NCBI GenBank assembly: GCA_964604245.1
Contig: CAZRYJ010000003.1
Span: 1 to 44,880 of the forward strand
Reading direction: 5' to 3'
From: an uncultured bacterium
GTDB lineage: Bacteria > Hydrothermota > UBA3072
DNA: 44,880 nt
Position 1 is the stretch's first letter. The number at the start of each line of letters is the position of its first letter. Under the pieces are notes generated by a model that worked only from the letters and a program-made list of their open reading frames with translations, was not told the DNA's origin and ran no database searches. The position numbers and the translations under genes were made by a program. This document shows positions 1,877 through 44,828 of the stretch, one piece after another.

Positions 1877-1922
1877 AACCACAAGATTTCACAGATTAAC
1901 ACCAGATTACCCAACCCCTCCC
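1877..1922 (+). repeat. GATT-word element (full form with CCCAACC tail)
   Basis: aaCCACaagattt-CACagattaa-CACcagatta-CCCAACCcctccc. CAC occurs at 1880, 1890 and 1900, an exact 10-nt phase. Confidence 0.8.
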
Positions 1923-1977
1923 TTATTTAATTGTTTTTTGTTGCTAGCCAACATTGTTTGTGTTTTAGAATTTGTGC

Positions 1978-2006
1978 TTGACATTAATAAGGCTTCTCTT
2001 ATTATT
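1978..2006 (+). promoter_or_regulatory. putative sigma70-type promoter for the 2023 ORF
   Basis: TTGACA at 1978..1983, a 17-nt spacer, then ATTATT at 2001..2006, 16 nt upstream of the ATG. Confidence 0.45.
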
Positions 2007-2022
2007 AGTATAAAAGGTTAGT

Positions 2023-2934
2023 ATGAAAATAAGTAATTATTTAATACAATCGATTATATTTCTGTTATCTTTTAATTTACCTCTTTTCTCAGGAGATATT
2101 GATTTTAACATTTCTCTTAATAAGAAAAGTTTTCTTGAAAGAGAACCAATATGGGTAAAATGCCAGGTGAAGAATAATGGAAGTACTCCTCGAAATGTTC
2201 TTTCAATAAAACATACAACAATCAGAGGTATGGTCTTTTATTTGATTTCCGAGGATCCAAACACCTATTTACAAGATGTTAGTCTAAAATATAGCTATGG
2301 TTATGAGCTTCTTACAATTCTCAATCCTGGAGAGAGTATGGAAAGTTTTGCGAATATTTTAGAATACTATTCTTCGCCAAGTAAATCGCTTCTTTCAGGA
2401 ACAAACATATTCTCCCTTAATCCAGGGAGATATAAACTCTACACCCGTTATTATACCAGATGGTACGAGAAGGACGGAAGAGAAGATATATATTCCGATA
2501 CACTTGAATTCGAGGTAATACCTCCAATTGGAGAAGAAAAAGAAGCGTTGAAACTTCTTGAAGAAAGTAACTATAAAGAAGTTTTTGAGAGATATCCTGG
2601 AAGTGTTTATGCTCCTCTATCGCTCTATCGTTATTTCATTCGTCAATGTGTATTCTCTCAACGCGAGAAACAAAGAAAAGAAAATGTTAATGAACTTTTA
2701 ATGCAACAATTGGAAAGATATCCGGATTCCCCGACAATTAAATACATTGACTTGCAAATTTTTCTTCAGTCCCAGTCAGGCATAGGGATGCTAAAAGAAG
2801 GAAAGTCCAGAATCAAAAGTATCTTAGAAAAAAACCCAAATAGTTATGCCGCTAAAATGATCAAAGAGATTTTAGAATCGACGGAGAACAAAAGCACCTA
2901 TACAGCTGAAGATATAATAGAAGAGAATAGATAA
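2023..2934 (+). CDS. hypothetical secreted protein (N-terminal signal peptide)
   Basis: 303-aa ORF with a hydrophobic N-terminus (IIFLLSFNLPLFSG). I recognise no catalytic motif. The C-terminal third looks helical-repeat-like. Confidence 0.6.
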   Translation: MKISNYLIQSIIFLLSFNLPLFSGDIDFNISLNKKSFLEREPIWVKCQVKNNGSTPRNVLSIKHTTIRGMVFYLISEDPNTYLQDVSLKYSYGYELLTILNPGESMESFANILEYYSSPSKSLLSGTNIFSLNPGRYKLYTRYYTRWYEKDGREDIYSDTLEFEVIPPIGEEKEALKLLEESNYKEVFERYPGSVYAPLSLYRYFIRQCVFSQREKQRKENVNELLMQQLERYPDSPTIKYIDLQIFLQSQSGIGMLKEGKSRIKSILEKNPNSYAAKMIKEILESTENKSTYTAEDIIEENR

Positions 2935-2974
2935 AAAAAATTAAACACTCTTCTTAAAATTCAATTTTGCTCTC

Positions 2975-3001
2975 TTGACAGTTTAATTTTTTTATATAAC
3001 T
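2975..3001 (+). promoter_or_regulatory. possible promoter for tRNA-Leu
   Basis: TTGACA at 2975..2980, but the best -10 candidates (TATAAC/ATAACT near 2995..3001) have a short 14-15-nt spacer. Confidence 0.3.
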
Positions 3002-3015
3002 TTTTATCCATCTTA

Positions 3016-3100
3016 GCCGGGGTGGCGGAATCGGTAGACGCGCATGGTTGAGGGCCATGTGGGATATTATCCTGTGGGGGTTCAAATCCCCCCTCCGGCA
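3016..3100 (+). tRNA. tRNA-Leu (anticodon GAG), class II with long variable arm, no encoded CCA
   Basis: Hand-folded cloverleaf. Acceptor GCCGGGG pairs with CTCCGGC (one G-U). Anticodon stem is CATGG/CCATG with loop TTGAGGG (U33, GAG, G37). The variable arm is 15 nt. T arm is GGGGG-TTCAAAT-CCCCC, with discriminator A. Confidence 0.9.
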
Positions 3101-3201
3101 TTTAAAATCCCAATAAAAAGGGCAACCAAACCCATCAGAAGCCTCTCAGACGCCCATAAAAGCCTCACAAGACATTTTTTTCTTCTCTATTCATAAATTA
3201 C

Positions 3202-3230
3202 TTGACTTTAATCGAAATTTCTCTTATAAT
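3202..3230 (+). promoter_or_regulatory. consensus sigma70 promoter for the 3251 ORF
   Basis: TTGACT at 3202..3207, an exact 17-nt spacer, then TATAAT at 3225..3230. A strong RBS (AAGGAGGGGG, about 3238..3247) precedes the ATG at 3251. Confidence 0.75.
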
Positions 3231-3250
3231 TAAATAAAAGGAGGGGGAAA

Positions 3251-3628
3251 ATGGCAGTAAACGGAGATTTCAGCTCAATCGAACAGGCTTTCGCAAGTCT
3301 TGAAGGTGATGGTATTTCGTATAAAAAAGCTTTCATTTCTGCGGAAAACTTCAAAAATAAAAACCCAAAACTACTCGGAGAACTAATTGAAGAAACATCA
3401 ATTATACTTGAAGAAAGAGCCAGAAACATCGAATTCGAAGAGTGGGAAGGGACCGGTGAAGATATGCCTTACACCACCCTTCATCTTGGAATTCAAAGAA
3501 TCAGAGAATTAGGTGGATTTATAAAAAAATTAGAAAAAATTGACAGCTATCATCTGGATTGGATTATAATTGGTGAACTTATTAGAGTTATAGCTTCCTT
3601 ACTAAACCATATTAACAAAACAAGATAA
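3251..3628 (+). CDS. hypothetical small acidic protein
   Basis: 125-aa ORF behind a consensus promoter and a strong RBS. I recognise no family. Confidence 0.6.
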   Translation: MAVNGDFSSIEQAFASLEGDGISYKKAFISAENFKNKNPKLLGELIEETSIILEERARNIEFEEWEGTGEDMPYTTLHLGIQRIRELGGFIKKLEKIDSYHLDWIIIGELIRVIASLLNHINKTR

Positions 3629-3680
3629 CATAGCTAAATAAAATATTAAAATTTAAAAAGTAAAATGACAAATAATTATT

Positions 3681-3704
3681 TAGGATTTTGGGGTTAGGAT
3701 TTAG
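3681..3704 (-). repeat. CCCCAAA-TCCTAAA word module
   Basis: The reverse complement, ctaaatcctaaccccaaaatccta, has relatives at 15690 and 44597. Confidence 0.6.
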
Positions 3705-3716
3705 TTAAAACACAAT

Positions 3717-3767
3717 AAAAAAATGGAGCGGGGTGGGCTCTGTGTTCTCCGTGTCTCTGTGGCAAAA
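3717..3767 (-). repeat. CACAGAG-word element with CCCACCCC-T7 tail
   Basis: Reverse complement: ttttgCCACagagaCACggagaaCACagagcCCACCCCgctccattttttt. Confidence 0.8.
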
Positions 3768-3776
3768 CAAATTTTT

Positions 3777-3838
3777 GAACTTTGATTTGTCTTTTTTTAT
3801 TTTGATATTTGATTTTTACATTTTGGTAGCTTTGATAC
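3777..3838. repeat. TTTGAT word cluster
   Basis: gaacTTTGATttg..., tTTTGATaTTTGATtt..., gcTTTGATac. A relative lies at 22261. Confidence 0.5.
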
Positions 3839-3900
3839 ACCAATATAAGATTAGCCTCTTTAGCAAATAGATAGTATCAACTAAATAATACCAAAGAATT

Positions 3901-4467: not shown

Positions 4468-4524
4468 ATATTCCTCCTAAATATCTTTAAACAACTAAAA
4501 AAAGATTTTATTTCCGTTTTCTTA

Positions 4525-4552
4525 ATTATAAAAAATTTTTTCACTGAGTCAA
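4525..4552 (-). promoter_or_regulatory. sigma70-type promoter for the 3901..4467 gene
   Basis: On the minus strand: TTGACT (4552..4547), a 16-nt spacer, then TATAAT (4530..4525). Confidence 0.6.
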
Positions 4553-4590
4553 GTGTTTAATTTGAATACATAAAAAAAACTTAAACAATA

Positions 4591-4619
4591 TCCCGCTATC
4601 GGCTATCCGCTTCCCGCTA
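4591..4619 (+). repeat. CCGCT(A) word triplet
   Basis: tCCCGCTAtcgGCTAtCCGCTtCCCGCTA. Confidence 0.55.
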
Positions 4620-4689
4620 ATTAAACACATCCCCATAAAAAATCTTGAAAAATAAATTTGGAGAGTTGTTACAAAGCGGTTTGCGGTAT

Positions 4690-5271: not shown

Positions 5272-5278
5272 CTATATT

Positions 5279-5306
5279 ATTTTAAGATTTTTTTCATTTA
5301 CGTCAA
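5279..5306 (-). promoter_or_regulatory. sigma70-type promoter, apparently leaderless transcript for the 4690..5271 gene
   Basis: On the minus strand: TTGACG (5306..5301), a 16-nt spacer, then TAAAAT (5284..5279). Only 7 nt separate the -10 box from the ATG (5271), and there is no RBS. Confidence 0.5.
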
Positions 5307-5323
5307 GAGTAAAAATTATATAA

Positions 5324-5353
5324 ATCACGAAACACACAAAAAACACGAAAAAA
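5324..5353 (+). repeat. CACGAA-word module
   Basis: atCACGAAaCACacaaaaaaCACGAAaaaa. Confidence 0.75.
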
Positions 5354-5366
5354 TAAAAAAATAATT

Positions 5367-5408
5367 TTACCACAGAGAGCACAGAGCCACACCTCACCCC
5401 ATTTTTTT
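5367..5408 (+). repeat. CACAGAG-word element with CACCCC-T7 tail
   Basis: ttaCCACagagagCACagagCCACacctCACCCCattttttt. Confidence 0.8.
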
Positions 5409-5428
5409 ATTTTATTTTTCCTATTTGA

Positions 5429-5453
5429 CCATTCAACAATTCAACCGCACAAC
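5429..5453 (+). repeat. TTCAAC word pair
   Basis: ccaTTCAACaaTTCAACcgcacaac. Confidence 0.45.
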
Positions 5454-5477
5454 TTAGATTTGAAAAATCTAAGTTGT
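5449..5477 (-). terminator. perfect 13-bp hairpin spanning the ispD stop codon (terminator-like, no U-tract)
   Basis: acaacttagattt-gaa-aaatctaagttgt. The ispD stop codon (5469..5471) lies in the right arm. No T-run follows on the minus strand. Confidence 0.4.
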
Positions 5478-11908: not shown

Positions 11909-11911
11909 AAA

Positions 11912-12121
11912 TTAATCCTCCTCCTCTTGAATTACTTCATATTCTATATTTCCATTAATAAATTCCTCAATAGCCTTATAGATAGGCTTCTTAATTGTTG
12001 TTCTCTTAAAAGTACTGAACCACAGAGCACTTTTACCCATAATGAGAACAGCCTTGTAAATATTCTCTTCTTTATTCTTAACTTCCTCTAATGGATAGAT
12101 CATATTTTGCCTCCAATTCAA
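11912..12121 (-). CDS. rpoZ: DNA-directed RNA polymerase subunit omega (probable)
   Basis: 69 aa. NIYKAVLIMGKSA resembles the omega core NRYxLvxxaakRA, and the position between gmk and coaBC fits. Confidence 0.55.
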   Translation of the reverse strand: MNWRQNMIYPLEEVKNKEENIYKAVLIMGKSALWFSTFKRTTIKKPIYKAIEEFINGNIEYEVIQEEED

Positions 12122-13971: not shown

Positions 13972-14457
13972 TTACATCCTGAACTTTCCGAAATCTTCCG
14001 GCTTAATGTCCTCCATATACTTTTTTATATCTTGGACCTTTTTATTATCATCAAGATCCAATTTTATACCACCTTTATCCATCACTTTATCCTGTACATA
14101 GATAGGAATATGATTCTTAGAGGCCAGGGCAAGTGAATCACTAGGTCTCGAATCTATTCTGAATATTGCGTTGTCTTTCTTTAGATAAATTTCAGCAAAA
14201 TAGGTATCATCTTTTAAATCGGAAACCACAACTTTTGATATATCTACCTTCAAGCCCTTAAGTACATTCAAAAGTAAATCATGAGTAAGAGGACGCTTAA
14301 ACTGTTCGTTTTTCAGTCCTTGAGATATCGCTTCAGCTTCAAAAGGACCTATCCAAATAGGAAGAACCCTCTTCTTTTCGTCAATATCTCTTAAAAGTAC
14401 TACCGGAGTATTTGAGGTTCTGTCAATCGCAATACCTGCAATTTTAACTTCCCTCAC
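13972..14457 (-). CDS. bifunctional nuclease family protein (BFN/DUF151)
   Basis: PVVLLRD...RVLPIWIGPFEAEAI....RPLTHDL and RPSDSLALA motifs typical of the BFN domain. Confidence 0.8.
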   Translation of the reverse strand: MREVKIAGIAIDRTSNTPVVLLRDIDEKKRVLPIWIGPFEAEAISQGLKNEQFKRPLTHDLLLNVLKGLKVDISKVVVSDLKDDTYFAEIYLKKDNAIFRIDSRPSDSLALASKNHIPIYVQDKVMDKGGIKLDLDDNKKVQDIKKYMEDIKPEDFGKFRM

Positions 14458-15229
14458 TCTCCTCCTCCTTAAGAGAATTTTCTTCTGTCTCAGTAGCTTC
14501 TTCTCTTACCTCCGGAGATTCTTCTTCCTCCGAAGCAGACACTTCTTCTACTTTCGGAGACTCTTCTTTAACCTCTACCGGTTCTTCTTTCTCCTCAGGG
14601 GATGCCTCTGCTTCAGGTACTTCCTCTTTAACCTCTTCAGAAGATTCTTCTTCCTCCGAAGCAGACACTTCTTCTACTTCAGGAGATTCTTCTTTAACCT
14701 CTACCGATTCTTCTTTCTCCTCGGAAGATTTCTCTTCCTCAGCGGACTCATCTTTGACCTCTTGGGATTCTTCTTCTTCCTCAGAAGCTTCCCCCTCAAC
14801 GATAAGCTTAATATGGGCTTTTACATCCTTAAATAAATTCAATTGTATCTCATATGATCCGGTTTCTCTTATATGGTCTTCTATATCCATAATCTTTTTA
14901 TCAATAAGAAACCCTTCTTCCTTTAAAAGGTCTTCAATATCTTGTTTGGTTATAGAACCATACAGTTTACCCTCTTTACCGACTTTAGCCTCAACTTTAA
15001 ACTCTTTGCCATCGATTTTCTCTTTAATCTGCTCTGCAGACATCGTTTCCTTTTCCAATTTAATTTCTTCGAATTTGCCTTCTGCTTTGATGCTGGCTTT
15101 ATTACCGGGAGTGTTAAGAACCGCAATATTTTTTGGTATCAAGTAGTTTCTCGCATATCCATCAGCGACTTGAACAACCTTACCTCTCTCTCCTAAATGC
15201 GGATGATTTTCCTTAAGTATTACTTCCAT
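14444..15229 (-). CDS. rplI: 50S ribosomal protein L9 with long acidic C-terminal extension
   Basis: Canonical L9 N-terminus MEVILKENHPHLGERGKVVQVADGYARNYLIPKNIA. The core ends near aa 145, and aa 146-261 are an E/S/V/P-rich tail. Confidence 0.9.
   Translation of the reverse strand: MEVILKENHPHLGERGKVVQVADGYARNYLIPKNIAVLNTPGNKASIKAEGKFEEIKLEKETMSAEQIKEKIDGKEFKVEAKVGKEGKLYGSITKQDIEDLLKEEGFLIDKKIMDIEDHIRETGSYEIQLNLFKDVKAHIKLIVEGEASEEEEESQEVKDESAEEEKSSEEKEESVEVKEESPEVEEVSASEEEESSEEVKEEVPEAEASPEEKEEPVEVKEESPKVEEVSASEEEESPEVREEATETEENSLKEEESEGS
14474..14725 (-). repeat. 2 x 126-bp in-frame tandem repeat inside the rplI tail
   Basis: Protein units are SEEKEESVEVKEESPEVEEVSASEEEES.. (aa 169-210) and PEEKEEPVEVKEESPKVEEVSASEEEES.. 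(aa 211-252). The DNA string ttcttcctccgaagcagacacttcttctac recurs 126 nt apart (about 14521 and 14647). Confidence 0.85.
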
Positions 15230-15463: not shown

Positions 15464-15525
15464 TAATCTCCTCCTCTTTAATGTTGTTTTAAATAAAATA
15501 AACCTTATCTCAACAATACGTATTT

Positions 15526-15553
15526 AATTTATATAGATTGATAATATAGTCAA
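15526..15553 (-). promoter_or_regulatory. putative promoter for the rpsR-led gene string
   Basis: On the minus strand: TTGACT (15553..15548), a 16-nt spacer, then TAAATT (15531..15526). Confidence 0.4.
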
Positions 15554-15638
15554 GCCCTGAACAATAGCTTTTTTTATGACAGAAAGCAATAAGAAATATA
15601 GCGAATCCAATGCCAATGTCTAAAGTCTGATGACCGTT

Positions 15639-15668
15639 AACACAAAGCCCCTCCACACCCATTTTTTT
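15639..15668 (+). repeat. CACAAAG variant with CCACACCC-T7 tail
   Basis: aaCACAAAGCCCCtCCACACCCattttttt. Confidence 0.7.
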
Positions 15669-15689
15669 ATTTATTGTTTTTACTAGATT

Positions 15690-15750
15690 CCACTCCCCAA
15701 ATCTTAAATCCTAAAAAAAGACTGAATTAACAAGATTTACCGGATTTTTT
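15690..15750 (+). repeat. CCCCAAATC-TAAATCC module followed by a short GATT-word pair
   Basis: ccactCCCCAAATCttAAATCCtaaaaaaa ... aacaaGATTTaccgGATTTttt. Confidence 0.6.
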
Positions 15751-15818
15751 ATTTGTTTTTTTTGAAAGACCCGAAACTAGAAGCTCATAACTTGTAACTA
15801 TAATTCCACAAGCCTTCA

Positions 15819-17399
15819 TCAGGAATCCAGTATTTTTTGCGCTTCTTCTTTATCACATTTCATTATATATTGAATACCGCTTATCTCACTCGCTTCATGT
15901 GTTAAAGCAGCAATATCGTCCCGGGTAATATATTCCAGTGCAAATTTACGACAGCCCGCCATAATCTGCCTCAATCCTTGATTTAATCTCTCCATATAGG
16001 TATATAGACCCATCGCGCCTGTTGGAAGATTTTCAAAGTCGCTTCCGAGTTTTCTCTTAAGTGCCGGTGCTGTAACAAATATCTCTTCAGGCGTATTTCC
16101 AAATCTTTCAATGTATACAGGAACCATTCCCTCATTGATTGTCTTCCCGATTGTCTTGCCCACCATGGCTGCTGCAAGCGGAGCCCTCGCCATACCTATT
16201 AATTTAAAGTGTGGCGCACCAAGTGCCAATCCTTTCAACATCTGGTCCTCAAATGCGAATCCACCTGCTATAGCAATATCCGGAACATACTCCCCTCTCC
16301 TGGCAAGTCTATCAACATATTTGTAGAGTAAAGAATGCAATTCGACCTCCGGTACACCCCATTCGTTCATCATTCTCCAGGGACTCATACCTGTTCCGCC
16401 ACCGGCTGCATCTACGGTTAGCAAATCAATCTCTGCCTTTGATGAAAACTTCAATGCTCTTGCCAGATCTACAGGTCTGTATGCGCCTGTCTTGAGGAAA
16501 ACGTGTTTTGCGCCTAAACTTTTCAGTTCCTTTACCCTCTTCAAAAAACTTTCCTCAGTAACCATACCTACCCTGGAATGCCGTTCGAACTCTTTAAAAT
16601 TGCCTTTTTCAAATGCCTTGATAATATCCGGTTTTGTTGGATCAGGTAGGACAATGTACCCTCTTTTTTTCAGGAGCTGAGCTCTTTTCAAATCCTTGAT
16701 TTTAACCTCACCACCTATGTTTTTTGCTCCCTGCCCCCATTTCAGTTCAACAGCGTCAACATCCAGTTCCGAAATAGCATATTCATGAACCCCTAAATTT
16801 GTGTCCTCTACATTCGCCTGGACAATTATCGCACCATATCCGTCCTGCTGCCATTTTTTGTAGAGTTTTACTCTCCACTCAAGATCCGTTGAATGCTTTA
16901 CTTTTCCATCAACAATTTCAGATTCAGGGTCCATTCCGCACACATTTTCACCGATAGTTAAGGGTATACCTGTTAACGCCGCACCTATTGCCAGTCCCTC
17001 CCAGTTGTTTTTCGCTATGGCTGTCGAACCTAAACCGGGTATGATTACAGGCATCTTAAGTTTTATATCCTTATTTTTTCCAATATTCGTTTCTATATTT
17101 ACATTTGAGAATAACGCTTCATCGCTGTCAGCCTTTATTCCTTCAGCACCTACGATTCCTCCGAGTATTGTGAAATGAGACAGGTCAACAGGATAAATTT
17201 TTTCGTTTGCGGAAGTTATTATTCCAAAAGGCTGGGGATAAATCACCTCATGCCCTCGATAGGCGGATTTACCTATTTCGCACATCCCTATACATCCGTC
17301 TACACAGGTTGCGCACATTCCGCTCATTGAATTTATTGCCCCTTCAGTTCTATTTTTTGTCAGCGTTGCCGCTGTTGCGTTAATCTTTGTTAAAGACAT
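15819..17399 (-). CDS. glutamate synthase-related FMN subunit (GltB domain-2 type) with N-terminal Cys cluster
   Basis: 526 aa. N-terminal CATCVDGCIGMCEIGKS (CxxCxxxCxxxC), a TIM-barrel FMN region with VDAAGGGTGMSP and IAGGF. There is no glutamine amidotransferase domain and no GXGXG domain. Overlaps the upstream gene by 10 nt. Confidence 0.8.
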   Translation of the reverse strand: MSLTKINATAATLTKNRTEGAINSMSGMCATCVDGCIGMCEIGKSAYRGHEVIYPQPFGIITSANEKIYPVDLSHFTILGGIVGAEGIKADSDEALFSNVNIETNIGKNKDIKLKMPVIIPGLGSTAIAKNNWEGLAIGAALTGIPLTIGENVCGMDPESEIVDGKVKHSTDLEWRVKLYKKWQQDGYGAIIVQANVEDTNLGVHEYAISELDVDAVELKWGQGAKNIGGEVKIKDLKRAQLLKKRGYIVLPDPTKPDIIKAFEKGNFKEFERHSRVGMVTEESFLKRVKELKSLGAKHVFLKTGAYRPVDLARALKFSSKAEIDLLTVDAAGGGTGMSPWRMMNEWGVPEVELHSLLYKYVDRLARRGEYVPDIAIAGGFAFEDQMLKGLALGAPHFKLIGMARAPLAAAMVGKTIGKTINEGMVPVYIERFGNTPEEIFVTAPALKRKLGSDFENLPTGAMGLYTYMERLNQGLRQIMAGCRKFALEYITRDDIAALTHEASEISGIQYIMKCDKEEAQKILDS

Positions 17400-21736: not shown

Positions 21737-21792
21737 AACGATCTCTCATTTAATCGAGATAAAGTGATTCTAAAAGGATTCAACTCTTCCAT
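21733..21792 (-). CDS. candidate 19-codon upstream ORF derived from the gdhA 5' end (MEELNPFRITLSRLNERSL)
   Basis: ATG at 21792 behind GAAGGAGG plus a 7-nt spacer. The first 7 codons are identical in protein to the gdhA N-terminus (MEELNPF). The TGA stop (21735..21733) overlaps the nuoE-like ATG as TGATG. The nuoE-like gene has no RBS of its own. Confidence 0.4.
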   Translation of the reverse strand: MEELNPFRITLSRLNERSL

Positions 21793-21861
21793 TAATTCGA
21801 CCTCCTTCGAAGGACAAATTCGCACTACTCTCCAATTCGACTATTTATAAATTCAAGTTCG

Positions 21862-21889: not shown

Positions 21890-21909
21890 GGCTAAAATTC
21901 GTTTTTTTA

Positions 21910-21923: not shown

Positions 21924-21981
21924 ATTCTATATGAATAATTCAAGAAATAAAGATTTTAAACTATCCAGAAAAAAAATTATA

Positions 21982-22014
21982 AACCACGAAACACACTAAA
22001 TACACGAAAAAAAC
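21982..22014 (+). repeat. CACGAA-word module
   Basis: aaCCACGAAaCACactaaataCACGAAaaaaac. Confidence 0.75.
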
Positions 22015-22030
22015 AAATAAATTTAAAAAA

Positions 22031-22083
22031 TCACCAAAGAGGACACAGAGAAGGAAGAACACACCGAGACCACAGAGAAAAAA
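22031..22083 (+). repeat. CACAGAG-word element
   Basis: tCACcaaagaggaCACAGAGaaggaagaaCACaccgagaCCACAGAGaaaaaa. Confidence 0.8.
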
Positions 22084-22100: not shown

Positions 22101-22164
22101 AACCCAACCCAGAACACCAATAATTAGCCACTGATTTTCACGGATTAACATGGACTTCCCAACC
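22101..22164 (+). repeat. CCCAACCC-CCAATAAT linker plus GATT-word element
   Basis: aaCCCAACCCagaacaCCAATAATtagCCACtgattttCACggattaaCAtggacttCCCAACC. Confidence 0.75.
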
Positions 22165-22200
22165 TTTCATCCCTAAATACTTTTTTTTAAAAAAAATTTT

Positions 22201-22233
22201 TCTATCAGTGTTTATCTGTGTTCATCCGCGGCT
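22201..22233 (-). repeat. GAT-word module, reverse orientation
   Basis: Reverse complement: agccgcGGATgaaCACAGATaaaCACTGATaga. Confidence 0.55.
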
Positions 22234-22260
22234 ATTTTCATTTTTTATGATTATCATTTT

Positions 22261-23780: not shown

Positions 23781-23857
23781 TTGCCACAAAGACACAAAGC
23801 CCCATTGCACCCAACCCAAATAATTAGACGCAGATTAAAAAAGATTGACAGGATTTA
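23781..23857 (+). repeat. CACAAAG element plus CCCAACCC-AATAAT linker plus GATT-word module
   Basis: ttgCCACAAAGaCACAAAGCCCCattgCACCCAACCCaaATAATtagaCGCAGATTaaaaaaGATTgaCAGGATTta. Confidence 0.75.
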
Positions 23858-23962
23858 TTATTTCGTTTTTTAAAACTTAGCTCAACACCCTAAATCAATC
23901 TCACAGGGAGATGTCGAGGACATGTAGCCCATACCACTTTTATTTTGTCGACGTTTCATCTG

Positions 23963-24026
23963 AAAAAATAAAAATTAAAGGGGATGAGTGGGTTTAGCGT
24001 TCTCTGTGCTCTCTGTGGTTAAAAAA
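23963..24026 (-). repeat. CACAGAG-word element, reverse orientation
   Basis: Reverse complement: ttttttaaCCACagagagCACagagaacgctaaaCCCACtCAtCCCCtttaatttttatttttt. Confidence 0.8.
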
Positions 24027-24054
24027 TTGGAGGTAGTATGGTGGAACATTACCA

Positions 24055-24082
24055 TTGACAACTTCGTCTTGAATTATATACT
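24055..24082 (+). promoter_or_regulatory. sigma70-type promoter, apparently leaderless, for the DUF2905 gene and glycan block
   Basis: TTGACA at 24055..24060, a 16-nt spacer, then TATACT at 24077..24082. Only 5 nt separate it from the ATG at 24088, and there is no RBS. Confidence 0.5.
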
Positions 24083-24087
24083 TTAAT

Positions 24088-24303
24088 ATGAAAATTGAGG
24101 CGCCTTTATTCTTGCTTGGATGTACTTTTGTAAGCATAGGAATTCTATTTATGTTATTTGCTAAAATTCCATTCTTTTCGCGTTTACCGGGAAGCATAGT
24201 AATTGAGAGAAGAAATTTTGTATTTCTCTTCCCCCTGGTTTTCTGTATTTCTGCTTCTATAATTCTAACGTTGGCACTAAATTTATTTTTTGCCAGAAAA
24301 TAG
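24088..24303 (+). CDS. small membrane protein, DUF2905-like
   Basis: 71 aa with two TM helices flanking RLPGSIVIERRNFVFLFP, which resembles the DUF2905 core (LPGDI.ieR.nf.fyfP). Confidence 0.6.
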   Translation: MKIEAPLFLLGCTFVSIGILFMLFAKIPFFSRLPGSIVIERRNFVFLFPLVFCISASIILTLALNLFFARK

Positions 24304-29313: not shown

Positions 29314-29316
29314 AAT

Positions 29317-29349
29317 GAACCACGAAAAGAAACAAAGAAACAACGAATT
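29317..29349 (+). repeat. CACGAA-word module
   Basis: gaaCCACGAAaagaaacaaagaaaCAACGAAtt. Confidence 0.7.
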
Positions 29350-29411
29350 ACACCCCGATACAGTCATTCTTCCTTACGGGGCTGGCAAATAACACAAATC
29401 AATTAAAAAAA

Positions 29412-29492
29412 TTTACCACAGAGGACACAGAGAAAAAGACACACAGAGCACACAATACTCCAATAATAGCCACGGATGTACACAGATTTAAT
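29412..29492 (+). repeat. CACAGAG element plus CCAATAAT linker plus GAT-word module
   Basis: tttaCCACAGAGgaCACAGAGaaaaagaCACACAGAGcacacaatactCCAATAATagCCACGGATgtaCACAGATTtaat. Confidence 0.8.
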
Positions 29493-29526
29493 ATATATTT
29501 TTTTGATTTAACAACAATAAAGGATA

Positions 29527-29570
29527 GGGTGGTTGGGTAATCTTGTGTTAATCTGTACAATCTCGTGGTT
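29527..29570 (-). repeat. GATT-word element (full form), reverse orientation, abutting the purC stop
   Basis: Reverse complement: aaCCACgagattgtACAgattaaCACaagattaCCCAACCaccc. Confidence 0.8.
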
Positions 29571-29575
29571 ACTAG

Positions 29576-31645: not shown

Positions 31646-31673
31646 ATTATAAAAAACAGACAACTTTTGTCAA
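31646..31673 (-). promoter_or_regulatory. consensus sigma70 promoter, apparently leaderless
   Basis: On the minus strand: TTGACA (31673..31668), a 16-nt spacer, then TATAAT (31651..31646). The ATG at 31639 follows after 6 nt. Confidence 0.6.
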
Positions 31674-31691
31674 GGAAAAAAAAGATGAACT

Positions 31692-31726
31692 TAGCCACGA
31701 AGACACCAAGGCTCCAAGAAAAAAGG
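31692..31726 (+). repeat. CACGAAG/CACCAAG word module
   Basis: tagCCACGAAGaCACCAAGgctCCAAGaaaaaagg. Confidence 0.65.
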
Positions 31727-31750
31727 AAAGTTTTTTATTAAATTTTAAAT

Positions 31751-31778
31751 CCTTAGTGTCTTTGTGTCTTTGTGGCAT
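31751..31778 (-). repeat. CACAAAG word module, inverted relative to 31692..31726
   Basis: Reverse complement: atgCCACAAAGaCACAAAGaCACtaagg. Confidence 0.7.
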
Positions 31779-31780
31779 AA

Positions 31781-33841: not shown

Positions 33842-34579
33842 TTACGTATTATTTTTTTTAACTTTTTGCCATATCTCTTCAAGCTCCCGAACCGAAAAAT
33901 CAGTCATATCTCTATTTTTTAAGATTTTTTCAAGTTTATGGAACCGCATCTCGAATTTATTATTTGCTCTCTGTAGAGCGATTTCGGGATTGATATTCAG
34001 AAAATTGCCAAGATGGGCTACCGCAAAGAGTATATCACCTAATTCTTCTATTTTTTCTTCCTCATTTTTTGAATTCTTAAGTTCCTCAAGTTCTTCATCT
34101 ATTTTTTCGAATACTCCGCTGATTTCCTCCCAATCAAAACCCTTTCTCGAAGCCCTTTTTTGAATTTTAGACGAACGCAACAGCGCCGGCAAACCTCTCC
34201 CAATCTTCCATTTTTTACCCTTTCTTTCGTCCCAATTCTCCAATACTTCTTCTGCAGAATTTGCCACCTCCTCGCCAAAAACGTGAGGATGCCGCACAAT
34301 CATCTTTTTTGAGACTTTATCAAATACCTTATCAAAAGTTGTATTATTCTCTTCCAATATAACTCCCATCATAAAAACGGTAAGAATAACATCACCAAAT
34401 TCCTCAATGATATTTTCTAAATTATCTTCCGTTATCTCCGCATTAAGCTCATAAACTTCTTCTAAAAGCTCGGGAATGAGGCTTTTTAGAGTCTGCACTC
34501 TATCCCAGGGACATTTTTTTCTTAGAGTTCTTACCAGTTCCAAAAAGTCATTCATAAAAGGAAAGATAAGCGTAAACAA
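33842..34579 (-). CDS. mazG: nucleoside triphosphate pyrophosphohydrolase MazG
   Basis: LR.KCPWDRVQT..SL...LEEVYEL, plus a second EEL.E...GDILF MazG repeat. The ATG at 34555 (MNDFLELVRTLRKKCPWD) may be the true start, since the track start is a TTG. Confidence 0.9.
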   Translation of the reverse strand: MFTLIFPFMNDFLELVRTLRKKCPWDRVQTLKSLIPELLEEVYELNAEITEDNLENIIEEFGDVILTVFMMGVILEENNTTFDKVFDKVSKKMIVRHPHVFGEEVANSAEEVLENWDERKGKKWKIGRGLPALLRSSKIQKRASRKGFDWEEISGVFEKIDEELEELKNSKNEEEKIEELGDILFAVAHLGNFLNINPEIALQRANNKFEMRFHKLEKILKNRDMTDFSVRELEEIWQKVKKNNT

Positions 34580-34597
34580 CCATATGTCAACTTTAAA

Positions 34598-34646
34598 TTA
34601 ACCACAAGATTACACAGATTATCACAAGATTTTTGTTGTTGTTTTT
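34598..34646 (+). repeat. GATT-word element (TTTTGTTG-tail form)
   Basis: ttaaCCACaagattaCACagattatCACaagatttttgttgttgttttt. CAC occurs at 34603, 34613 and 34623, an exact 10-nt phase. Confidence 0.8.
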
Positions 34647-34650
34647 AACT

Positions 34651-34725
34651 AAGACCAAAACCAAAGACCTAAATGAGTGTTTTTTTACTAATTCACTAAT
34701 TAACCATTTCACTAATAAACTAAAA
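34651..34725 (+). repeat. locus-specific word pairs (AAGACC, CACTAAT)
   Basis: AAGACCaaaaccaAAGACCta ... ctaattCACTAATtaaccatttCACTAATaaactaaaa. Confidence 0.5.
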
Positions 34726-35439: not shown

Positions 35440-35483
35440 GTTTCATTTAAATGTAATTTTAGAGTTTTTTAAATATTTTCCCC

Positions 35484-35511
35484 TTGACTAAAATGATTTT
35501 TTTCGTATATT
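35484..35511 (+). promoter_or_regulatory. sigma70-type promoter for the first small OMP gene
   Basis: TTGACT at 35484..35489, a 16-nt spacer, then TATATT at 35506..35511. Confidence 0.6.
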
Positions 35512-35563
35512 TCTTTATAAAAGGCGGATGGTGCCTTAAAAAGAAACCTAAGGAGGGATGTAT

Positions 35564-36046: not shown

Positions 36047-36112
36047 GTAAGGACAGAAATTTACTTTCGGCACCATCTGTTCTTTATTACTCAAAGGTAG
36101 TTAATAAAAAAA

Positions 36113-36139
36113 CGGAATTTGAAAAAATTCCGTTTTTTT
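36113..36139 (+). terminator. intrinsic terminator
   Basis: cggaatt-tgaaaa-aattccg followed by TTTTTTT. Confidence 0.8.
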
Positions 36140-36181
36140 ATTTTATCTTTCTTTTATATAACAAATATGCACCAAAAACCC

Positions 36182-36209
36182 TTGACATTTATACTTAAAA
36201 GAGTATACT
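36182..36209 (+). promoter_or_regulatory. sigma70-type promoter for the second small OMP gene
   Basis: TTGACA at 36182..36187, a 16-nt spacer, then TATACT at 36204..36209. The RBS GGGAGG precedes the ATG at 36244. Confidence 0.6.
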
Positions 36210-36243
36210 ATATAAACAAAAACCTTACAAAAAGGGAGGTCAT

Positions 36244-36771: not shown

Positions 36772-36800
36772 ATTAAAGAAGTTTTAGTAAAAACAAAAAG

Positions 36801-36826
36801 GCGTATATTCAAATATACGCTTTTTT
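36801..36826 (+). terminator. intrinsic terminator
   Basis: gcgtatat-tcaa-atatacgc followed by TTTTTT. Confidence 0.8.
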
Positions 36827-36856
36827 GGTTTTCATAGCACAGAGAAATTATTTGGG

Positions 36857-36921
36857 CTATTCGTGCAATTCGTTGTTACTTCTTTTGTTGGTTCGTTGGC
36901 TCGTTAGGTCGTTGGGTGGTT
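36857..36921 (-). repeat. AACGA/CACGAA-word tract (near-tandem 9-10-mers)
   Basis: Reverse complement: aaCCACCCAACGAcCTAACGAgCCAACGAaCCAACAAaagaagtaaCAACGAAttgCACGAAtag. Confidence 0.7.
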
Positions 36922-36933
36922 AAAACAAAAGAT

Positions 36934-36967
36934 AAAATCCTGTAAATCCGTGTTAATCTTGTCAAAA
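36934..36967 (-). repeat. GATT-word module, reverse orientation
   Basis: Reverse complement: ttttgaCAAGATTaaCACGGATTtaCAGGATTtt. Confidence 0.7.
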
Positions 36968-36990
36968 TTTTTGGGTTGTGAAGGGTAAAA

Positions 36991-37014
36991 CGTGTCTCTG
37001 TGCCTCAGTGTGAG
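36991..37014 (-). repeat. CACAGAG-word module abutting the mrdA stop
   Basis: Reverse complement: ctCACACTGAGgCACAGAGaCACg. Confidence 0.65.
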
Positions 37015-37015
37015 A

Positions 37016-41064: not shown

Positions 41065-41072
41065 AAGGGTTT

Positions 41073-43441: not shown

Positions 43442-44391
43442 GTTTTACTCCTGAAGATTATACCGAAAAAAACGAATATTAAGGTTGCAATCGAATACAG
43501 AATTATCGCGCCTTTAATACTAAGCCGTGTAATGATAAAAGCCGCTTCGCAAAGTGCTATTGTAGCCAGATATATTATGGCAATTACAGAAGGTGTGGGT
43601 AAACCGCTTGCTTTAAGTTTTAAAACGAAATGGTCATGAGAACCTCTAAGAGGGTTTCTTTTTTTTGCGATTCGAAGAACAACCACATAAGCTGTATCAA
43701 ACAAGGGTATAAAGAGAATAAGCAGCGGAACAAAGAATGCAATTGGGTTTGCATCCGTATATCTTGTTATTATAGCTAAAACGGAAAGCATATAACCGAG
43801 AAAAAGACTTCCGGAGTCACCCATAAAAATTTTTGCTTTTGGCAGATTAAAAGGCAAAAAACCAAGACAGCTTCCCGCAAGTGTGACGGCAACAATAGGA
43901 TATGTTCCACTCCCGGAAACCGAAATAAAAATAAAACTGAATGCCGCAAAAAAACCTACGCCAGCGGAAATACCATCCATTACGTCTATTATATTAAAAG
44001 CATTTGTTATTCCAACGATCCAGATTATAGATAAAACAATGTTAAGGTATTCAGGTAAAATTTTAACATTCATTCTTATTCCGGACCAGACTGTAAATAT
44101 AGCGATCAGAAATTGAAATAAAAGCTTTAAATATTTTGAATATGGACGTATATCATCAAAGAAACCAAGAAGAAAAATAGAAAAACCGAAGACCAATATT
44201 TTCCATTCATTAGTAAAAAAAGCGTAAGTCAAAGTTCCGAGGAAAATTGCAATACCACCACCATAAGGTGTTGGTTTCGAATGATCTTTAATCCCCTTCG
44301 GTCTGTCTATGAAACCTATTCTCGGAGCTACTTTTGAAAGTACGAATGATAAAAGAAAAGTAAGAACAAAGGCTATAGCAAAATAAATCAA
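43438..44391 (-). CDS. MraY/WecA-family polyprenyl-phosphate N-acetylhexosamine-1-phosphate transferase
   Basis: About 10 TM helices, with FDDI, NAFNIIDVMDG and MGDSGSLFLGY motifs. Confidence 0.85.
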   Translation of the reverse strand: MIYFAIAFVLTFLLSFVLSKVAPRIGFIDRPKGIKDHSKPTPYGGGIAIFLGTLTYAFFTNEWKILVFGFSIFLLGFFDDIRPYSKYLKLLFQFLIAIFTVWSGIRMNVKILPEYLNIVLSIIWIVGITNAFNIIDVMDGISAGVGFFAAFSFIFISVSGSGTYPIVAVTLAGSCLGFLPFNLPKAKIFMGDSGSLFLGYMLSVLAIITRYTDANPIAFFVPLLILFIPLFDTAYVVVLRIAKKRNPLRGSHDHFVLKLKASGLPTPSVIAIIYLATIALCEAAFIITRLSIKGAIILYSIATLIFVFFGIIFRSKT

Positions 44392-44467
44392 TTTTCACTC
44401 TCCCCGATCAATTTCAAGGTAAGGAAATTATTTTTTTTCTTCGATAAATCCATAATTTTTCTATCTA

Positions 44468-44495
44468 AATTTATGATTTTATGAAAATTAGTCAA
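44468..44495 (-). promoter_or_regulatory. putative promoter for the wecA-like operon
   Basis: On the minus strand: TTGACT (44495..44490), a 16-nt spacer, then TAAATT (44473..44468). Confidence 0.4.
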
Positions 44496-44510
44496 GGTAA
44501 ACATCATATT

Positions 44511-44556
44511 CTAACCACAAGATTCCACAGATTAGCACAAGATTTTTCTTGTTTTC
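44511..44556 (+). repeat. GATT-word element (TTTT-tail form)
   Basis: ctaaCCACaagattcCACagattagCACaagatttttcttgttttc. CAC occurs at 44516, 44526 and 44536. Confidence 0.8.
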
Positions 44557-44564
44557 GGACAAGA

Positions 44565-44623
44565 GACCAGCGACTAATGACCAGTGACCATATTTACTAA
44601 ATCCCAACCCCCAAATCCCAGAT
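44565..44623 (+). repeat. GACCAG word pair, then CCCAACCCCCAAATCCC module
   Basis: GACCAGcgactaatGACCAGtGACCAt ... ctAAATCCCAACCCCCAAATCCCagat. Confidence 0.55.
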
Positions 44624-44630
44624 ATTAATT

Positions 44631-44698
44631 TCACCGCAGAGACACAGAGAACACAGAGATATTGGGACGCAGATAAACGCAGATTTACAGGATTTTTT
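44631..44698 (+). repeat. CACAGAG element followed by a GAT-word triplet
   Basis: tCACcGCAGAGaCACAGAGaaCACAGAGatattgggaCGCAGATaaaCGCAGATttaCAGGATttttt. Confidence 0.8.
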
Positions 44699-44710
44699 CT
44701 TTTTTGTTTT

Positions 44711-44746
44711 GACACAAGACTCACTACGCACGACTCAAGACTCAAT
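44711..44746 (+). repeat. AAGACTCA word pair
   Basis: gacaCAAGACTCActacgcacgaCTCAAGACTCAat. Confidence 0.5.
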
Positions 44747-44781
44747 TACACACAGATTATCACAAGATTTTTTGTTGTTTT
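44747..44781 (+). repeat. GATT-word module (TTTTGTTG-tail form)
   Basis: tacaCACagattatCACaagattttttgttgtttt. Confidence 0.75.
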
Positions 44782-44784
44782 ATT

Positions 44785-44828
44785 CTAACTACTAACTTCC
44801 AACTTCTAGCTACTTCTTCTCACTTTTC
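44785..44828 (+). repeat. CTAAC/ACTTC word tract
   Basis: CTAACtaCTAACTTCcaACTTCtagctACTTCttctcACTTttc. Confidence 0.45.

Follow-up and report, generated by a model that had tools for sequence, protein, structure and literature searches.

Pneumococcal BOX, Neisseria NIME and Correia elements are modular intergenic repeats with variable module number and order and no transposase of their own, a description that also fits the modules reported here. They are, however, restricted to a genus or family and possess stable folds or fixed bounding inverted repeats, whereas here word triplets followed by a T-run tail are shared across phyla. Eukaryotic foldback (FB) elements and the ends of transposons such as Tn7, Mu and IS21, where the transposase binds several subterminal repeats, have arms of short, tandem direct repeats that terminate the element on the outer side. 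The module arms share this layout as a resemblance only: the former have defined transposases and duplications, which were not found for the modules, and the module arms measure only about 33 nt. The BIMEs of E. coli and relatives are, like the modules, extragenic, high-copy mosaics of few short motif families, often situated at gene 3' ends and free of coding capacity. Their REP units are imperfect palindromes tied to RAYT transposases (see also PMC3184786), while single modules are unstructured, built from tandem words and spread across domains. MITEs are small, occur in many copies and in inverted-repeat forms, differ in presence or absence among relatives and have internal tandem repeats, e.g., a minisatellite in a P. 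gingivalis MITE (PMC4596501). The modules share these traits, but no target-site duplication or same-ended autonomous partner was found for them, and their copies in the analysed window are mostly single arms. STRRs are 7-bp tandem repeats in the non-coding DNA of filamentous cyanobacteria, conserved within the group and of unknown function (PMC2670836). The CCGCTAT, GACCAGT, AAATCCC, GACTCAA and CTAACTA heptamer tracts resemble them, but form just one part of a larger module system that also includes heads and T-run tails. STAR of S. aureus is an interspersed intergenic direct repeat as well (PMC3532100), but with a different G+C-rich unit and limited to staphylococci. Rut sites share with the modules an excess of C over G, the lack of structure and regularly spaced C-containing words 3' of stop codons; rut sites are neither conserved in sequence nor organized as dispersed repeat families. 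Intergenic repeats of a dispersed, mosaic or modular build are a known kind (BIME, BOX, NIME, STRR, minisatellite-bearing MITEs), and the view of an earlier note that the architecture matches no known class was not supported. Its separation from REP/BIME, ERIC and CRISPR was supported, and there was no Rfam match even at E <= 1. Plasmids and IMG/VR gave no match for the modules, and no database entry or publication describing the 33-base module was found.

Repeat modules in the intergenic gaps

The window, i.e., the whole analysed stretch of 44,880 nt, had been described as carrying repeats in all gaps longer than 115 nt, and twelve gaps were listed (1830-2022, 3629-3900, 4468-4689, 5272-5468, 15464-15818, 21737-22361, 23625-24087, 29314-29575, 31664-31780, 34580-34725, 36772-37015 and 44392-44880). 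The tracts exceed chance: short-range direct repeats reached z = 9-13 against dinucleotide shuffles, with 281 7-mer repeats in the gaps (7-12 nt range, at most one mismatch) versus 84.7 +/- 15 in the shuffles (z = 13) and a density of 69 per kb in gaps versus 22 per kb in the remainder of the window. The triplet CCAC-N5-8-CAC-N5-8-CAC was present seven times against 0.14 expected, always between genes. Ten of the twelve listed gaps had p < 0.05. In per-gap tests 4468-4689 was borderline, and 1830-2022 had no self-repeat excess, yet holds one genuine module A. The generalization to all long gaps did not stand: no repeat excess was detected in 35440-35557, 36047-36243 and 11909-12117 (per-gap tests), and 3101-3250 has a weak tract only.

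Every example sequence quoted in the earlier note was located at its position, the recurrent families GATT, CACAGAG and CACGAA were recovered by TRF and repeat search, and the strand asymmetry of the words was confirmed in 41 oriented tracts (A 42 %, C 28 %, G 13 %, T 17 %). Both spurious low-complexity ORFs (23994..24197 and 44488..44745) were verified, and the tracts have no coding capacity. Tracts had been said to open nearly always with RCCAC; within the listed gaps RCCAC/GTGGY was counted 20 times and thus stands at the head of roughly half of the 41 tracts. Words regarded as locus-specific form families as well, with CTAAC, TTTGAT, CCAACGA and AAATCCC tracts found again in other genomes at 80-90 % identity.

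A module of about 33-55 nt has a TA(A/G)CCAC head, continues with two to four tandem, CAC-anchored repeats of a short C/A-rich word and closes with a T-run, with or without a C-string in between. The word period varies from 7 to 11 nt between families. Module A, AACCACAAGATT-n-CACAGATTA-n-CACAAGATT, has GATT-type words, module B CACAGAG or CACAAAG and module C CACGAA. The head (left) edge of module A is sharp. Words are conserved while the linkers between them vary, with 0.3-0.55 bits in the linkers of module A and 0.8-1.3 bits in the third word, which lies outside the search pattern. Single modules do not fold (two modules had an MFE of -1.3 kcal/mol and another -5.5, with z about 0 in each case). 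The following features were identified in the window (D and I numbers, repeat families; L numbers, compared genomes):

1877..1922 (+): module A with three GATT words and C-string ACCCAACCCCTCCC; D2, I1; 81 % identity over 54 nt with an inverted copy at 29518-29571, 88-97 % with copies in L046, L068, L027 and L052
3139..3181 (+): weak AAGCCTC word tract with T-run after tRNA-Leu; no significant self-repeat excess
3678..3704 (-): AAATCC/CCTAAAT heptamer words, period 7 x 3.9
3725..3765 (-): module B (CACAGAG words) with C-string; I2, I6, I7
3773..3826 (-): ATCAAA (TTTGAT) word tract; 83-89 % to L081, L036, L024, L105, L104 and L103
4592..4634 (+): CCGCTAT heptamer words with C-string
5322..5353 (+): module C (CACGAA words); D3
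5366..5419 (+): module B with C-string and T-run; D5, D11, I17
5429..5453 (+): ATTCAAC words
15637..15681 (+): head-truncated module B (one word) with C-string and T-run; D11, I7; 95.5 % to the L101 ortholog
15727..15763 (+): two-word module A variant with T-run
21981..22014 (+): module C; D3
22030..22083 (+): module B with four words; L101 shorter by 27 nt (two words)
22124..22235: composite inverted pair of arm TTAGCCACTGATT.. (+), C-string, T8A8 centre and arm ..GCGGCTAT (-); fold z -3.4; about 98 % identity with L101
22262..22286 (-): ATCAAA (TTTGATA) words; D15
23781..23817 (+): module B (CACAAAG) with C-string, directly 3' of the hairpin 23764-23776
23825..23871 (+): module A' (GACGCAGATT words) with T-run
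23980..24022 (-): module B with C-string; I17; head points to the promoter at 24055
29317..29352 (+): module C, beginning 4 nt past the stop codon of a + strand TPR gene
29353..29385 (+): 33-nt G+C-rich hairpin inserted in the array; missing from L101
29412..29452 (+): module B; three-state indel at the 3' end (window, L100, L101)
29466..29572: composite inverted pair of about 107 nt, arm ATAGCCACGGATG.. (+), T-run, G-string and module A arm (-); I1; fold z -2.3/-2.9; 80 % over 128 nt to L081, 99 % to L100
31691..31724 (+): module C variant, head toward the promoter at 31673
31750..31780 (-): module B (CACAAAG), its head directly at the upstream gene's stop codon; L100 has an A(+)/A(-) pair in place of the entire cassette
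34598..34646 (+): module A with T-run; D2; head 9 nt from a -35 box
34647..34723 (+): GACCAAA and CACTAAT words, head-to-tail with the preceding module A; 93 % identity with L106, different in L100
36854..36963 (-): block of C' (CCAACGA words) and A'; I3, I21; inside a 138-nt segment (window about 36840-36975) that matches a different L100 locus at 85.5 % identity
36973..37015 (-): C-string and module B, beginning at the PBP2 stop codon; gap content differs in L083, a relative 96 % identical
44511..44816 (+): head-to-tail array of eight modules (A, GACCAGT words, AAATCCC words, B, A', GACTCAA words, head-truncated A, CTAAC words); D2, I2, I3

Distribution and turnover

The cross-phylum and cross-domain spread, the cassette turnover among close relatives and the evidence for sequence constraint were absent from the earlier note. 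Over 33 bases, module A is present near letter-for-letter in methane-oxidising archaea and across more than ten phyla of Bacteria. Its core of 21 specified bases has at least 99 exact matches in species-representative genomes, those of ANME-1 and Methanosarcinales among them, for an estimated chance expectation of about 0.3. The archaeal copies adjoin archaeal housekeeping genes, with flanks verified for cmk, pelota, AhaC and FrhB. Many module copies lie near contig ends, and the carrier genomes are MAGs.

Most other carrier lineages have module A as the two arms of intergenic inverted repeats of 50-130 nt, whereas in the clade of the window, probably WOR-3, the arms are mostly single or fill gaps as head-to-tail arrays. 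Two composite inverted pairs are present in the window, within 22120-22245 and 29462-29580 (z -2.3 to -3.5). The earlier description as hairpin-free and devoid of inverted repeats is correct for single modules, but not for these pairs, and a purely non-palindromic, lineage-local architecture is contradicted by the modules serving as arms of inverted-repeat elements in many phyla. The mismatches of the inverted pairs sit in the linkers, therefore the arms are conserved as words and not for pairing. No recurrent transposase or integrase was present among 134 neighbouring genes (217 Pfam families), and long-range module pairs enclose ordinary genes. Transposition is only a putative means of spread, because neither a target-site duplication, an autonomous partner with the same ends nor a clean empty-versus-filled site for any single module was found.

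Between relatives 90-95 % identical, whole cassettes are swapped, blocks appear at other loci and the word number is altered, including the 27-nt change, the three-state indel and the 138-nt multi-module block at two different loci. Even relatives 95-96 % identical in sequence have different modules in the same gap. Long gaps make up 65-143 nt per kb in module-carrying relatives versus 11.7 in L108. A 6.7-kb operon has 91 % identity to L106, against 76-83 % for the sequence on either side of it, and the gap 34580-34725 has 93 % identity with the same genome. Recombination among these lineages is frequent, and some of the apparent conservation could stem from recent exchange.

Sequence constraint and possible roles

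Retained copies evolve slower than synonymous sites. Identity between orthologous modules is 94.6 %, higher than the 80.9 % of four-fold sites (p = 7e-26) and the 88 % of other intergenic DNA; seven separate orthologous segments each show 93-97 % to L101 with four-fold sites at 81 %. Concerted homogenisation does not explain the conservation, since orthologs are about 98 % identical (by eye, alignments) versus 81 % for one measured paralog pair. The module B upstream of the promoter at 24055 is kept in all relatives examined, down to about 75 % nucleotide identity, and module A is kept 16 nt upstream of truA in four species. The uniformity of the seven segments is not expected under random transfer times and, together with the retained copies and the conserved words with free linkers, argues against purely selfish or decaying repeat DNA without a host role, whose conservation would reflect recent insertion or recombinational cassette exchange between lineages. 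The patchy phylogenetic distribution, cassette swaps that do not track the flanking-gene phylogeny, operon-level exchange or indels adjoining mosaic gaps and the expanded gaps of carrier genomes speak for such DNA, which we consider improbable. Local microsatellite-like repeats at unrelated loci, arisen by replication slippage in AT-rich spacers, have a precedent in the cyanobacterial STRRs (PMC2670836) and would fit the many arrays of period 7 to 8 and the change in word number. Slippage accounts for copy-number change, not for origin or spread: whole modules, including the differences among their own words, recur at many loci and phyla. Similarity between loci and between genomes largely refutes this very improbable origin. 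Chance, sequence composition, faulty assembly or contamination, for which the many copies near contig ends and the MAG nature of the genomes could be cited, are practically negligible explanations in view of the z values against shuffles, the orthologous copies in syntenic relatives and the recurrence of the modules in assemblies made independently by different laboratories, within contigs of at least 100 kb and beside lineage-typical genes.

Hairpin-less, strand-specific transcript-end elements, acting on the RNA and insulating neighbouring genes, are possible, though unlikely. In Bacteria, a termination factor would be recruited by the unstructured, C/A-rich and G-poor RNA ahead of a U-tract, either at a Rho-type rut site or through NusG-assisted pausing; in Archaea, the oligo-U itself would be the terminator. 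The C/A strand is essentially structureless and has more C than G, a T5 or longer follows within 45 nt in 35 % of 256 modules, and 28 of 67 heads lie at most 25 nt from a co-oriented stop codon. A scan of about 10 kb of gap sequence gave only three or four canonical hairpin terminators, which leaves many genes without one. The word spacing recalls the regularly spaced C residues that are the basis for predicting rut sites. A compositional signal, however, needs neither a 33-nt identity across domains nor conserved words with free linkers; the tracts are richer in A than in C, many archaeal copies have no T-run, and Archaea are not known to possess Rho. The orientation relative to flanking genes, when tabulated, favoured C/A-sense positions downstream of genes in archaea (12 versus 3), but was inconsistent in bacteria, with 13 antisense versus 10 sense in tandem gaps of low-GC bacteria and 25 of 28 tandem-gap modules antisense in the window (hand count). 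Small RNA genes or RNA-protein platforms, in which transcribed C/A-rich repeats and C-strings would anneal to ribosome-binding sites or tie up an RNA-binding protein, appear quite improbable. C-strings such as CACCUCACCCC exactly mimic the anti-SD core, the host has strong GGAGG Shine-Dalgarno sites, U-rich tails follow the words and the sequences are constrained; against this stand promoter-like sites upstream of heads not beyond chance in gap scans, the lack of terminator hairpins and Rfam similarity, and both orientations relative to genes.

We give about an even chance to a superfamily of non-autonomous modular ("foldback-like") repeats that spreads horizontally and is under sequence constraint. 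Word periods of 7-11 nt, which one protein or one helical phasing cannot cover, the inconsistent orientation to transcription in bacteria and a constraint unexpected for purely selfish DNA count against it. The tracts are whole, truncated or rearranged copies of a superfamily of short, dispersed DNA modules, whose horizontal spread would span uncultivated and for the most part anaerobic bacterial and archaeal lineages. The words may be recognition sites on duplex DNA for a putative sequence-specific trans-acting factor, a recombinase-like or nucleoid-type protein presumably encoded elsewhere. The head would mark the end of the element, and modules may be moved or exchanged via recombination at the junctions of T-run and head. 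Retained copies may be useful to the host at gene boundaries.

Repeat tracts and module anatomy

The repeat system in the intergenic gaps is real and statistically robust, and the examples quoted in the earlier note were found in the sequence. Direct repeats at short range (7-12 nt) were in excess of dinucleotide-preserving shuffles within the gaps (z = 9-13) and 3.5-5 times denser there than in the remaining window. The triplet CCAC-N5-8-CAC-N5-8-CAC was observed seven times against 0.14 expected, every time in gaps, and TRF and find_repeats recovered the three main families together with inverted copies. Repeats had been claimed for all twelve long gaps; ten of these were individually significant. 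Of further long gaps, 35440-35557, 36047-36243 and 11909-12117 had no excess, and 3101-3250 contained a weak tract only. The claimed strand asymmetry was confirmed by the composition of 41 delimited tracts on the word strand (A 42 %, C 28 %, G 13 %, T 17 %). An RCCAC opening, described as nearly constant, headed only about half of the tracts. The reported lack of hairpins and inverted repeats applied to single modules, which folded like shuffles (z -0.96 to +0.95), but not to two composite inverted pairs within 22120-22245 and 29462-29580 (z -2.3 to -3.5). Words regarded as locus-specific were found again in other genomes at 80-90 % identity. A literature search with sequence strings and by topic yielded no description of the repeat system.

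On the C/A-rich strand a module opens with the head (T)TA(A/G)CCAC, continues with two to four tandem words anchored by CAC, occasionally CGC, and often contains a C-string such as ACCCAACCCCTCCC or CACCTCACCCC, followed by a T-run. The following words were distinguished.

Word families of the modules
Family A: CACAAGATT / CACAGATTA
Family A': GACGCAGATT
Family B: CACAGAG / CACAAAG
Family C: CACGAAA
Family E: CACGGAT / CACTGAT
Heptamer/octamer word sets: CCGCTAT, GACCAGT, AAATCCC, GACTCAA, CTAACTA, ATCAAA, CACTAAT, CCAACGA

About 41 tracts were present in 45 kb, 29 on the (+) and 12 on the (-) strand; the elements measure 33-130 nt. Most window copies were single arms or arrays of the same orientation, joined head to tail at T-run/head junctions (e.g., eight modules at 44511-44816); alternatively, modules faced each other as inverted pairs. 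TRF reported period-7 arrays at 3678, 4593, 44565, 44599, 44711 and 44785. The module orders C-B and C-B-E were repeated at 5322, 21981 and 29317, indicating larger composite units. An alignment of 101 distinct copies of module A had a sharp left edge, and the information ended after about 33 nt. The third word was conserved at 0.8-1.3 bits, though located outside the search pattern, while the two linker positions were nearly free (0.3-0.55 bits).

Small G+C-rich hairpins of about 25-40 nt (e.g., CCCCGATACAGTCATTCTTCCTTACGGGGCTGG) were located inside or between modules, at window 29353-29385 and in six loci of other genomes (L022, L023, L064, L066, L098 and L100). The window copy was absent from the 92 %-identical relative L101, and L100 has a hairpin inserted behind its homologue of the module B at window 29412-29452. 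These hairpins seem to form a separate, second family of very small insertions.

The window itself has a G+C content of 35 %, is about 90 % coding with genes mostly on the (-) strand, and carries housekeeping genes of an ordinary kind for a Gram-negative anaerobe: TilS, two GGDEF proteins, IspD, a NuoE/NuoF-GltD-type operon, an archaeal-type Gdh, a GT2 glycosyltransferase, a YbgF-like TPR protein, SAICAR synthetase, PBP2 and a protein with a weak T9SS sorting domain. Transposase, integrase and cas genes were not detected in the window. Further features are the following.

Features of the window other than modules
3016-3100, tRNA-Leu, the sole Rfam match at gathering score
5272-5310, 31646-31673 and 34563-34590, near-perfect sigma-70 promoters (TTGACA-16-TATAAT)
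14511-14762, 126-nt tandem duplication (84 % identity, 21-nt sub-period) within ORF 14444..15229 (-)
15567-22303, 6.7-kb NuoE/F-GltD operon: Glu-synthase-domain protein, ferredoxin, NuoF-GltD fusion and NuoE-like protein, with a mosaic gap on either side
21746-21943 and 23560-23755, duplicated 5' region of the NuoE-like gene and gdh
22297-22348, 36103-36142 and 36794-36827, long-stem intrinsic terminators at a few gene ends

Promoters of the flanking genes were very canonical (CTTGACA-N16-TATAAT) and separate from the modules, at which promoter-like sites were not in excess over chance. The three near-perfect sigma-70 promoters extend over the 5' ends of ORFs that were called mechanically from TTG codons; the actual start codons therefore lie more internally. 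For the GGDEF gene ending at 5271 the -10 box is only about 7 nt ahead of the ATG, and its mRNA may thus be leaderless. The gdh promoter, 5' UTR and first codons (MEELNPF..) recur before the NuoE-like gene with 76-80 % identity over about 190 nt, which suggests that the two adjacent transcription units may share regulation; the NuoE-like ORF therefore probably starts near 21793, not 21736. The protein segment encoded by the tandem duplication at 14511-14762 is probably repetitive and either acidic or rich in serine. A recognisable hairpin terminator was missing from most transcription units of the window.

Turnover and conservation among relatives

The closest public genome, MAG CAYYUB01, had 96 % nucleotide identity to the window over 3.6 kb; a CAYYUB01 contig matched, with 80.6 % identity over 2.1 kb, a MAG that is labelled as candidate division WOR-3, which makes a WOR-3 bacterium the probable host. 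An exact-protein look-up of Gdh for strain-level contigs gave no record. When metagenomes were scanned with the GT2 protein as query, syntenic relatives of decreasing similarity were recovered: L100 (about 90-96 % nucleotide identity by block), L101 (92 %), L102-L107 (75-85 %) and L108-L111 (about 65 %).

Differences in cassettes and indels were already present between relatives of 92-96 % identity. Gap 36772-37015 has the order B-A'-C' in the window versus A-B in the 96 %-identical relative L083, gap 31664-31780 has C(+) and B(-) versus an A(+)/A(-) pair in L100, and gap 34580-34725 is 93 % identical to L106, with flanking genes at only about 76 %, but wholly different in L100. One junction in gap 29314-29575 had three states, and a 33-nt G+C-rich hairpin there was present or absent. 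The module B at 22030 differed in length between relatives, by exactly 27 nt of words. A 138-nt block of C-string, A' and C' was shared with 85.5 % identity between window 36840-36975 and a different locus of L100. Long gaps contributed 65-143 nt per kb in module-carrying genomes versus 11.7 in L108, whose GT2 protein has 70 % amino-acid identity to that of the window; L110 (67 %) carried CGC-type mosaics. Exchange probably also concerned whole genes: the 6.7-kb NuoE/F-GltD operon was absent from L100 and 91 % identical to L106, with flanks at 76-83 %, which suggests horizontal exchange or an indel in the recent past. Recombination between modules was rejected for the L100 indel, as the junction has no shared module.

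Retained modules were strongly conserved. Between window and L101 they had 94.6 % identity, compared to 80.9 % at four-fold degenerate sites (Fisher p = 7e-26) and 88 % in other intergenic DNA (p = 9e-7), and all seven retained segments fell within 93-97 %. A module B copy just upstream of the GT2-operon promoter persisted in every relative examined, even where nucleotide identity was as low as about 75 %. Gene conversion among copies does not account for this conservation, because orthologous copies were about 98 % identical in alignments judged by eye versus 81 % for the one same-genome paralog pair measured. Recombination among lineages is evident from the 6.7-kb operon, so part of the conservation signal could reflect recent exchange. 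Mismatches in inverted pairs were located in linkers or were A.C and did not preserve wobble pairing. On this pattern, selection for an RNA hairpin was rejected; the arms are thus conserved as words.

Distribution and gene context

The module A core AACCACAAGATTNCACAGATTA, with 21 specified bases and by our own estimate about 0.3 chance matches, had at least 99 exact matches in species-representative genomes. Among the matches listed were many low-GC MAGs of the clade of the window and WOR-3, further Planctomycetota, Elusimicrobia, Anaerolineales (60 % G+C), Dehalococcoidia, Nitrospinae, Spirochaetes, Desulfuromonadales, Acidobacteriota, Bacteroidales, Clostridia and Poribacteria, and about 29 archaeal loci of ANME-1/Methanophagales, Methanosarcinales and other Methanomicrobia. 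The archaeal loci include a single-cell genome with a 141-kb contig, and copies adjoin archaeal cytidylate kinase, pelota, A1-ATPase subunit C and FrhB/FpoF; contamination is therefore no explanation. Facing A arms 50-130 nt apart (AACCAC...GTGGTT) were present at about 12 loci in other phyla and ANME-1. IMG/VR and the PLSDB plasmids gave no hits, and INPHARED a single marginal match (MT838324.1, positions 16-46; 33 nt, 94 % identity, E = 1e-3). This 5.4-kb 'Bacteriophage sp.' contig from human faeces is the only module A match outside MAGs; the match lies near the contig end and could be due to chance. To our knowledge, near-exact identity over 33 nt across domains is rare except in rRNA and tRNA. 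Such a distribution points to either a very promiscuous mobile element or a portable cis signal read by conserved machinery.

Heads were nearer to flanking genes than tails (94 versus 41, p = 6e-6), in part a trivial result of head-out pairing. After a co-oriented gene, 28 of 67 heads lay within 25 nt of the stop codon, several overlapping it. Some copies were located just upstream of -35 boxes, with no fixed spacing between head and box. In tandem gaps the orientation was mixed in low-GC bacteria (13 antisense versus 10 sense) and mostly sense in archaea (12 versus 3); a polarity linked to transcription was thus dismissed as a general trait in bacteria.

Two local contexts recurred. In four species (L005, L009, L046 and L068; e.g., L009 4029-4090) a module A, read in G/T-sense, lies upstream of truA and stops 16 nt short of its start codon. 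These loci have no Shine-Dalgarno sequence between module and start codon, and a good promoter lies further upstream, which places the module probably in the truA 5' UTR. In four ANME-1 loci (L041, L042, L054 and L076) a TATA-box-like TATATAAAG precedes an A'-type head (GGACGCAGATTTACGCGG..) by about 24 nt; the module could thus start a small transcript in archaea.

Relation to known repeats and possible function

An enzyme encoded in cis was found neither in the window nor in neighbouring genes or the 179 loci. The 134 genes next to module A (217 Pfam families) held no recurrent transposase or integrase, the 179 loci no IS-like long dispersed repeats, and long-range head-out pairs enclosed ordinary genes. 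By eye, inverted-pair copies were not flanked by direct duplications of 2-9 nt; a fixed target word was not found, the upstream preference being A/T-richness only.

By its kind, the module system groups with known mosaic or modular repeats dispersed in intergenic DNA: BIME/REP, BOX, NIME, MITE, STAR and STRR. Its arms, built of tandem words, have some resemblance to foldback elements and to transposon ends with several repeats. Comparable repeats are also MITEs with internal minisatellites (PMC4596501) and STAR (PMC3532100). With MITEs the modules share small size, high copy number and insertion polymorphism. Inverted termini were present at the roughly 12 loci with A pairs and in the two composite pairs of the window; most window copies are single arms or arrays of one orientation. 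The inverted-pair copies have so far provided no target-site duplication, and the 179 loci and 134 neighbouring genes no autonomous partner with the same ends. A REP unit is a 20-40-nt imperfect palindrome, whereas single modules fold no better than shuffles, and a RAYT (Y1 transposase) gene was absent from the window and the neighbouring genes. CRISPR arrays combine a constant repeat of 24-40 nt with unique spacers; here, 7-11-nt words without spacers are dispersed in nearly every gap, and no cas-like gene was among the 27 window proteins scanned. Tandem heptanucleotides in non-coding DNA are shared with STRR, the heptamer repeats of cyanobacteria (PMC2670836), but those occur in filamentous cyanobacteria and consist of other units than in this non-photosynthetic, WOR-3-like anaerobe. 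Rfam gave nothing relevant in the window at E <= 1 besides the tRNA-Leu, and, at gathering and permissive thresholds for the window and eight loci, only tRNA and one group II intron fragment. Also dropped, after inspection by eye and for lack of collinearity or because of the distribution, were DnaA boxes, parS, Pho-box-like direct repeats, a similarity to the 16S 3'-end (helix 45), box C/D sRNAs, attC sites and type III toxin-antitoxin repeats. The module system differs from the systems compared in its architecture of word triplets, in a 33-nt module that is nearly identical across domains, and in the rapid cassette turnover together with strong conservation of retained copies.

The best-supported interpretation is a horizontally spreading, non-autonomous, modular repeat superfamily with words under sequence-specific constraint. 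Units would be exchanged, copied and resized at module junctions, the words would serve as putative duplex-DNA recognition sites for a trans-acting factor, and retained copies may act at gene boundaries. The main rival is a polar terminator without hairpin that acts at the RNA level by unstructured C/A-rich RNA followed by a U-tract. It accounts for the proximity to stop codons, the T-runs, the missing structure and the scarcity of canonical terminators, of which the scanned gaps held only three or four of the classical hairpin type. The high C and low G content, the unstructured nature of the modules and the heads near co-oriented stop codons would suit a Rho-dependent terminator (rut site), yet A exceeds C and the orientation is mixed; A-richness and mixed orientation remain unexplained by the terminator, as does the sequence identity across domains. 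Pure junk DNA, small RNA genes, local slippage or an artefact are less likely.

A further step from the superfamily interpretation is rather improbable in our judgement: a new class of horizontally mobile gene-boundary element of about 33 nt, without hairpin, whose exact words would be recognised in Bacteria and Archaea. Words read by the machinery of both domains would explain the purifying selection as well as the colonised intergenic space in many phyla. Such an element could act as a portable terminator or insulator, or as an array bound by a nucleoid or recombination protein that has itself been transferred widely.

If true, several percent of the genome of this clade, and nearly all its long intergenic DNA, are an unannotated repeat system, the same as in ANME-1 archaea, Planctomycetota, Chloroflexota, Nitrospinota, Elusimicrobiota and others. 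The modules break assemblies, as indicated by many copies at contig ends, and give rise to spurious ORFs. Hot spots at which cassettes and operons are exchanged are marked by them, and with their help the boundaries of transcription units would become testable in uncultivated lineages, most of which are devoid of canonical terminators.
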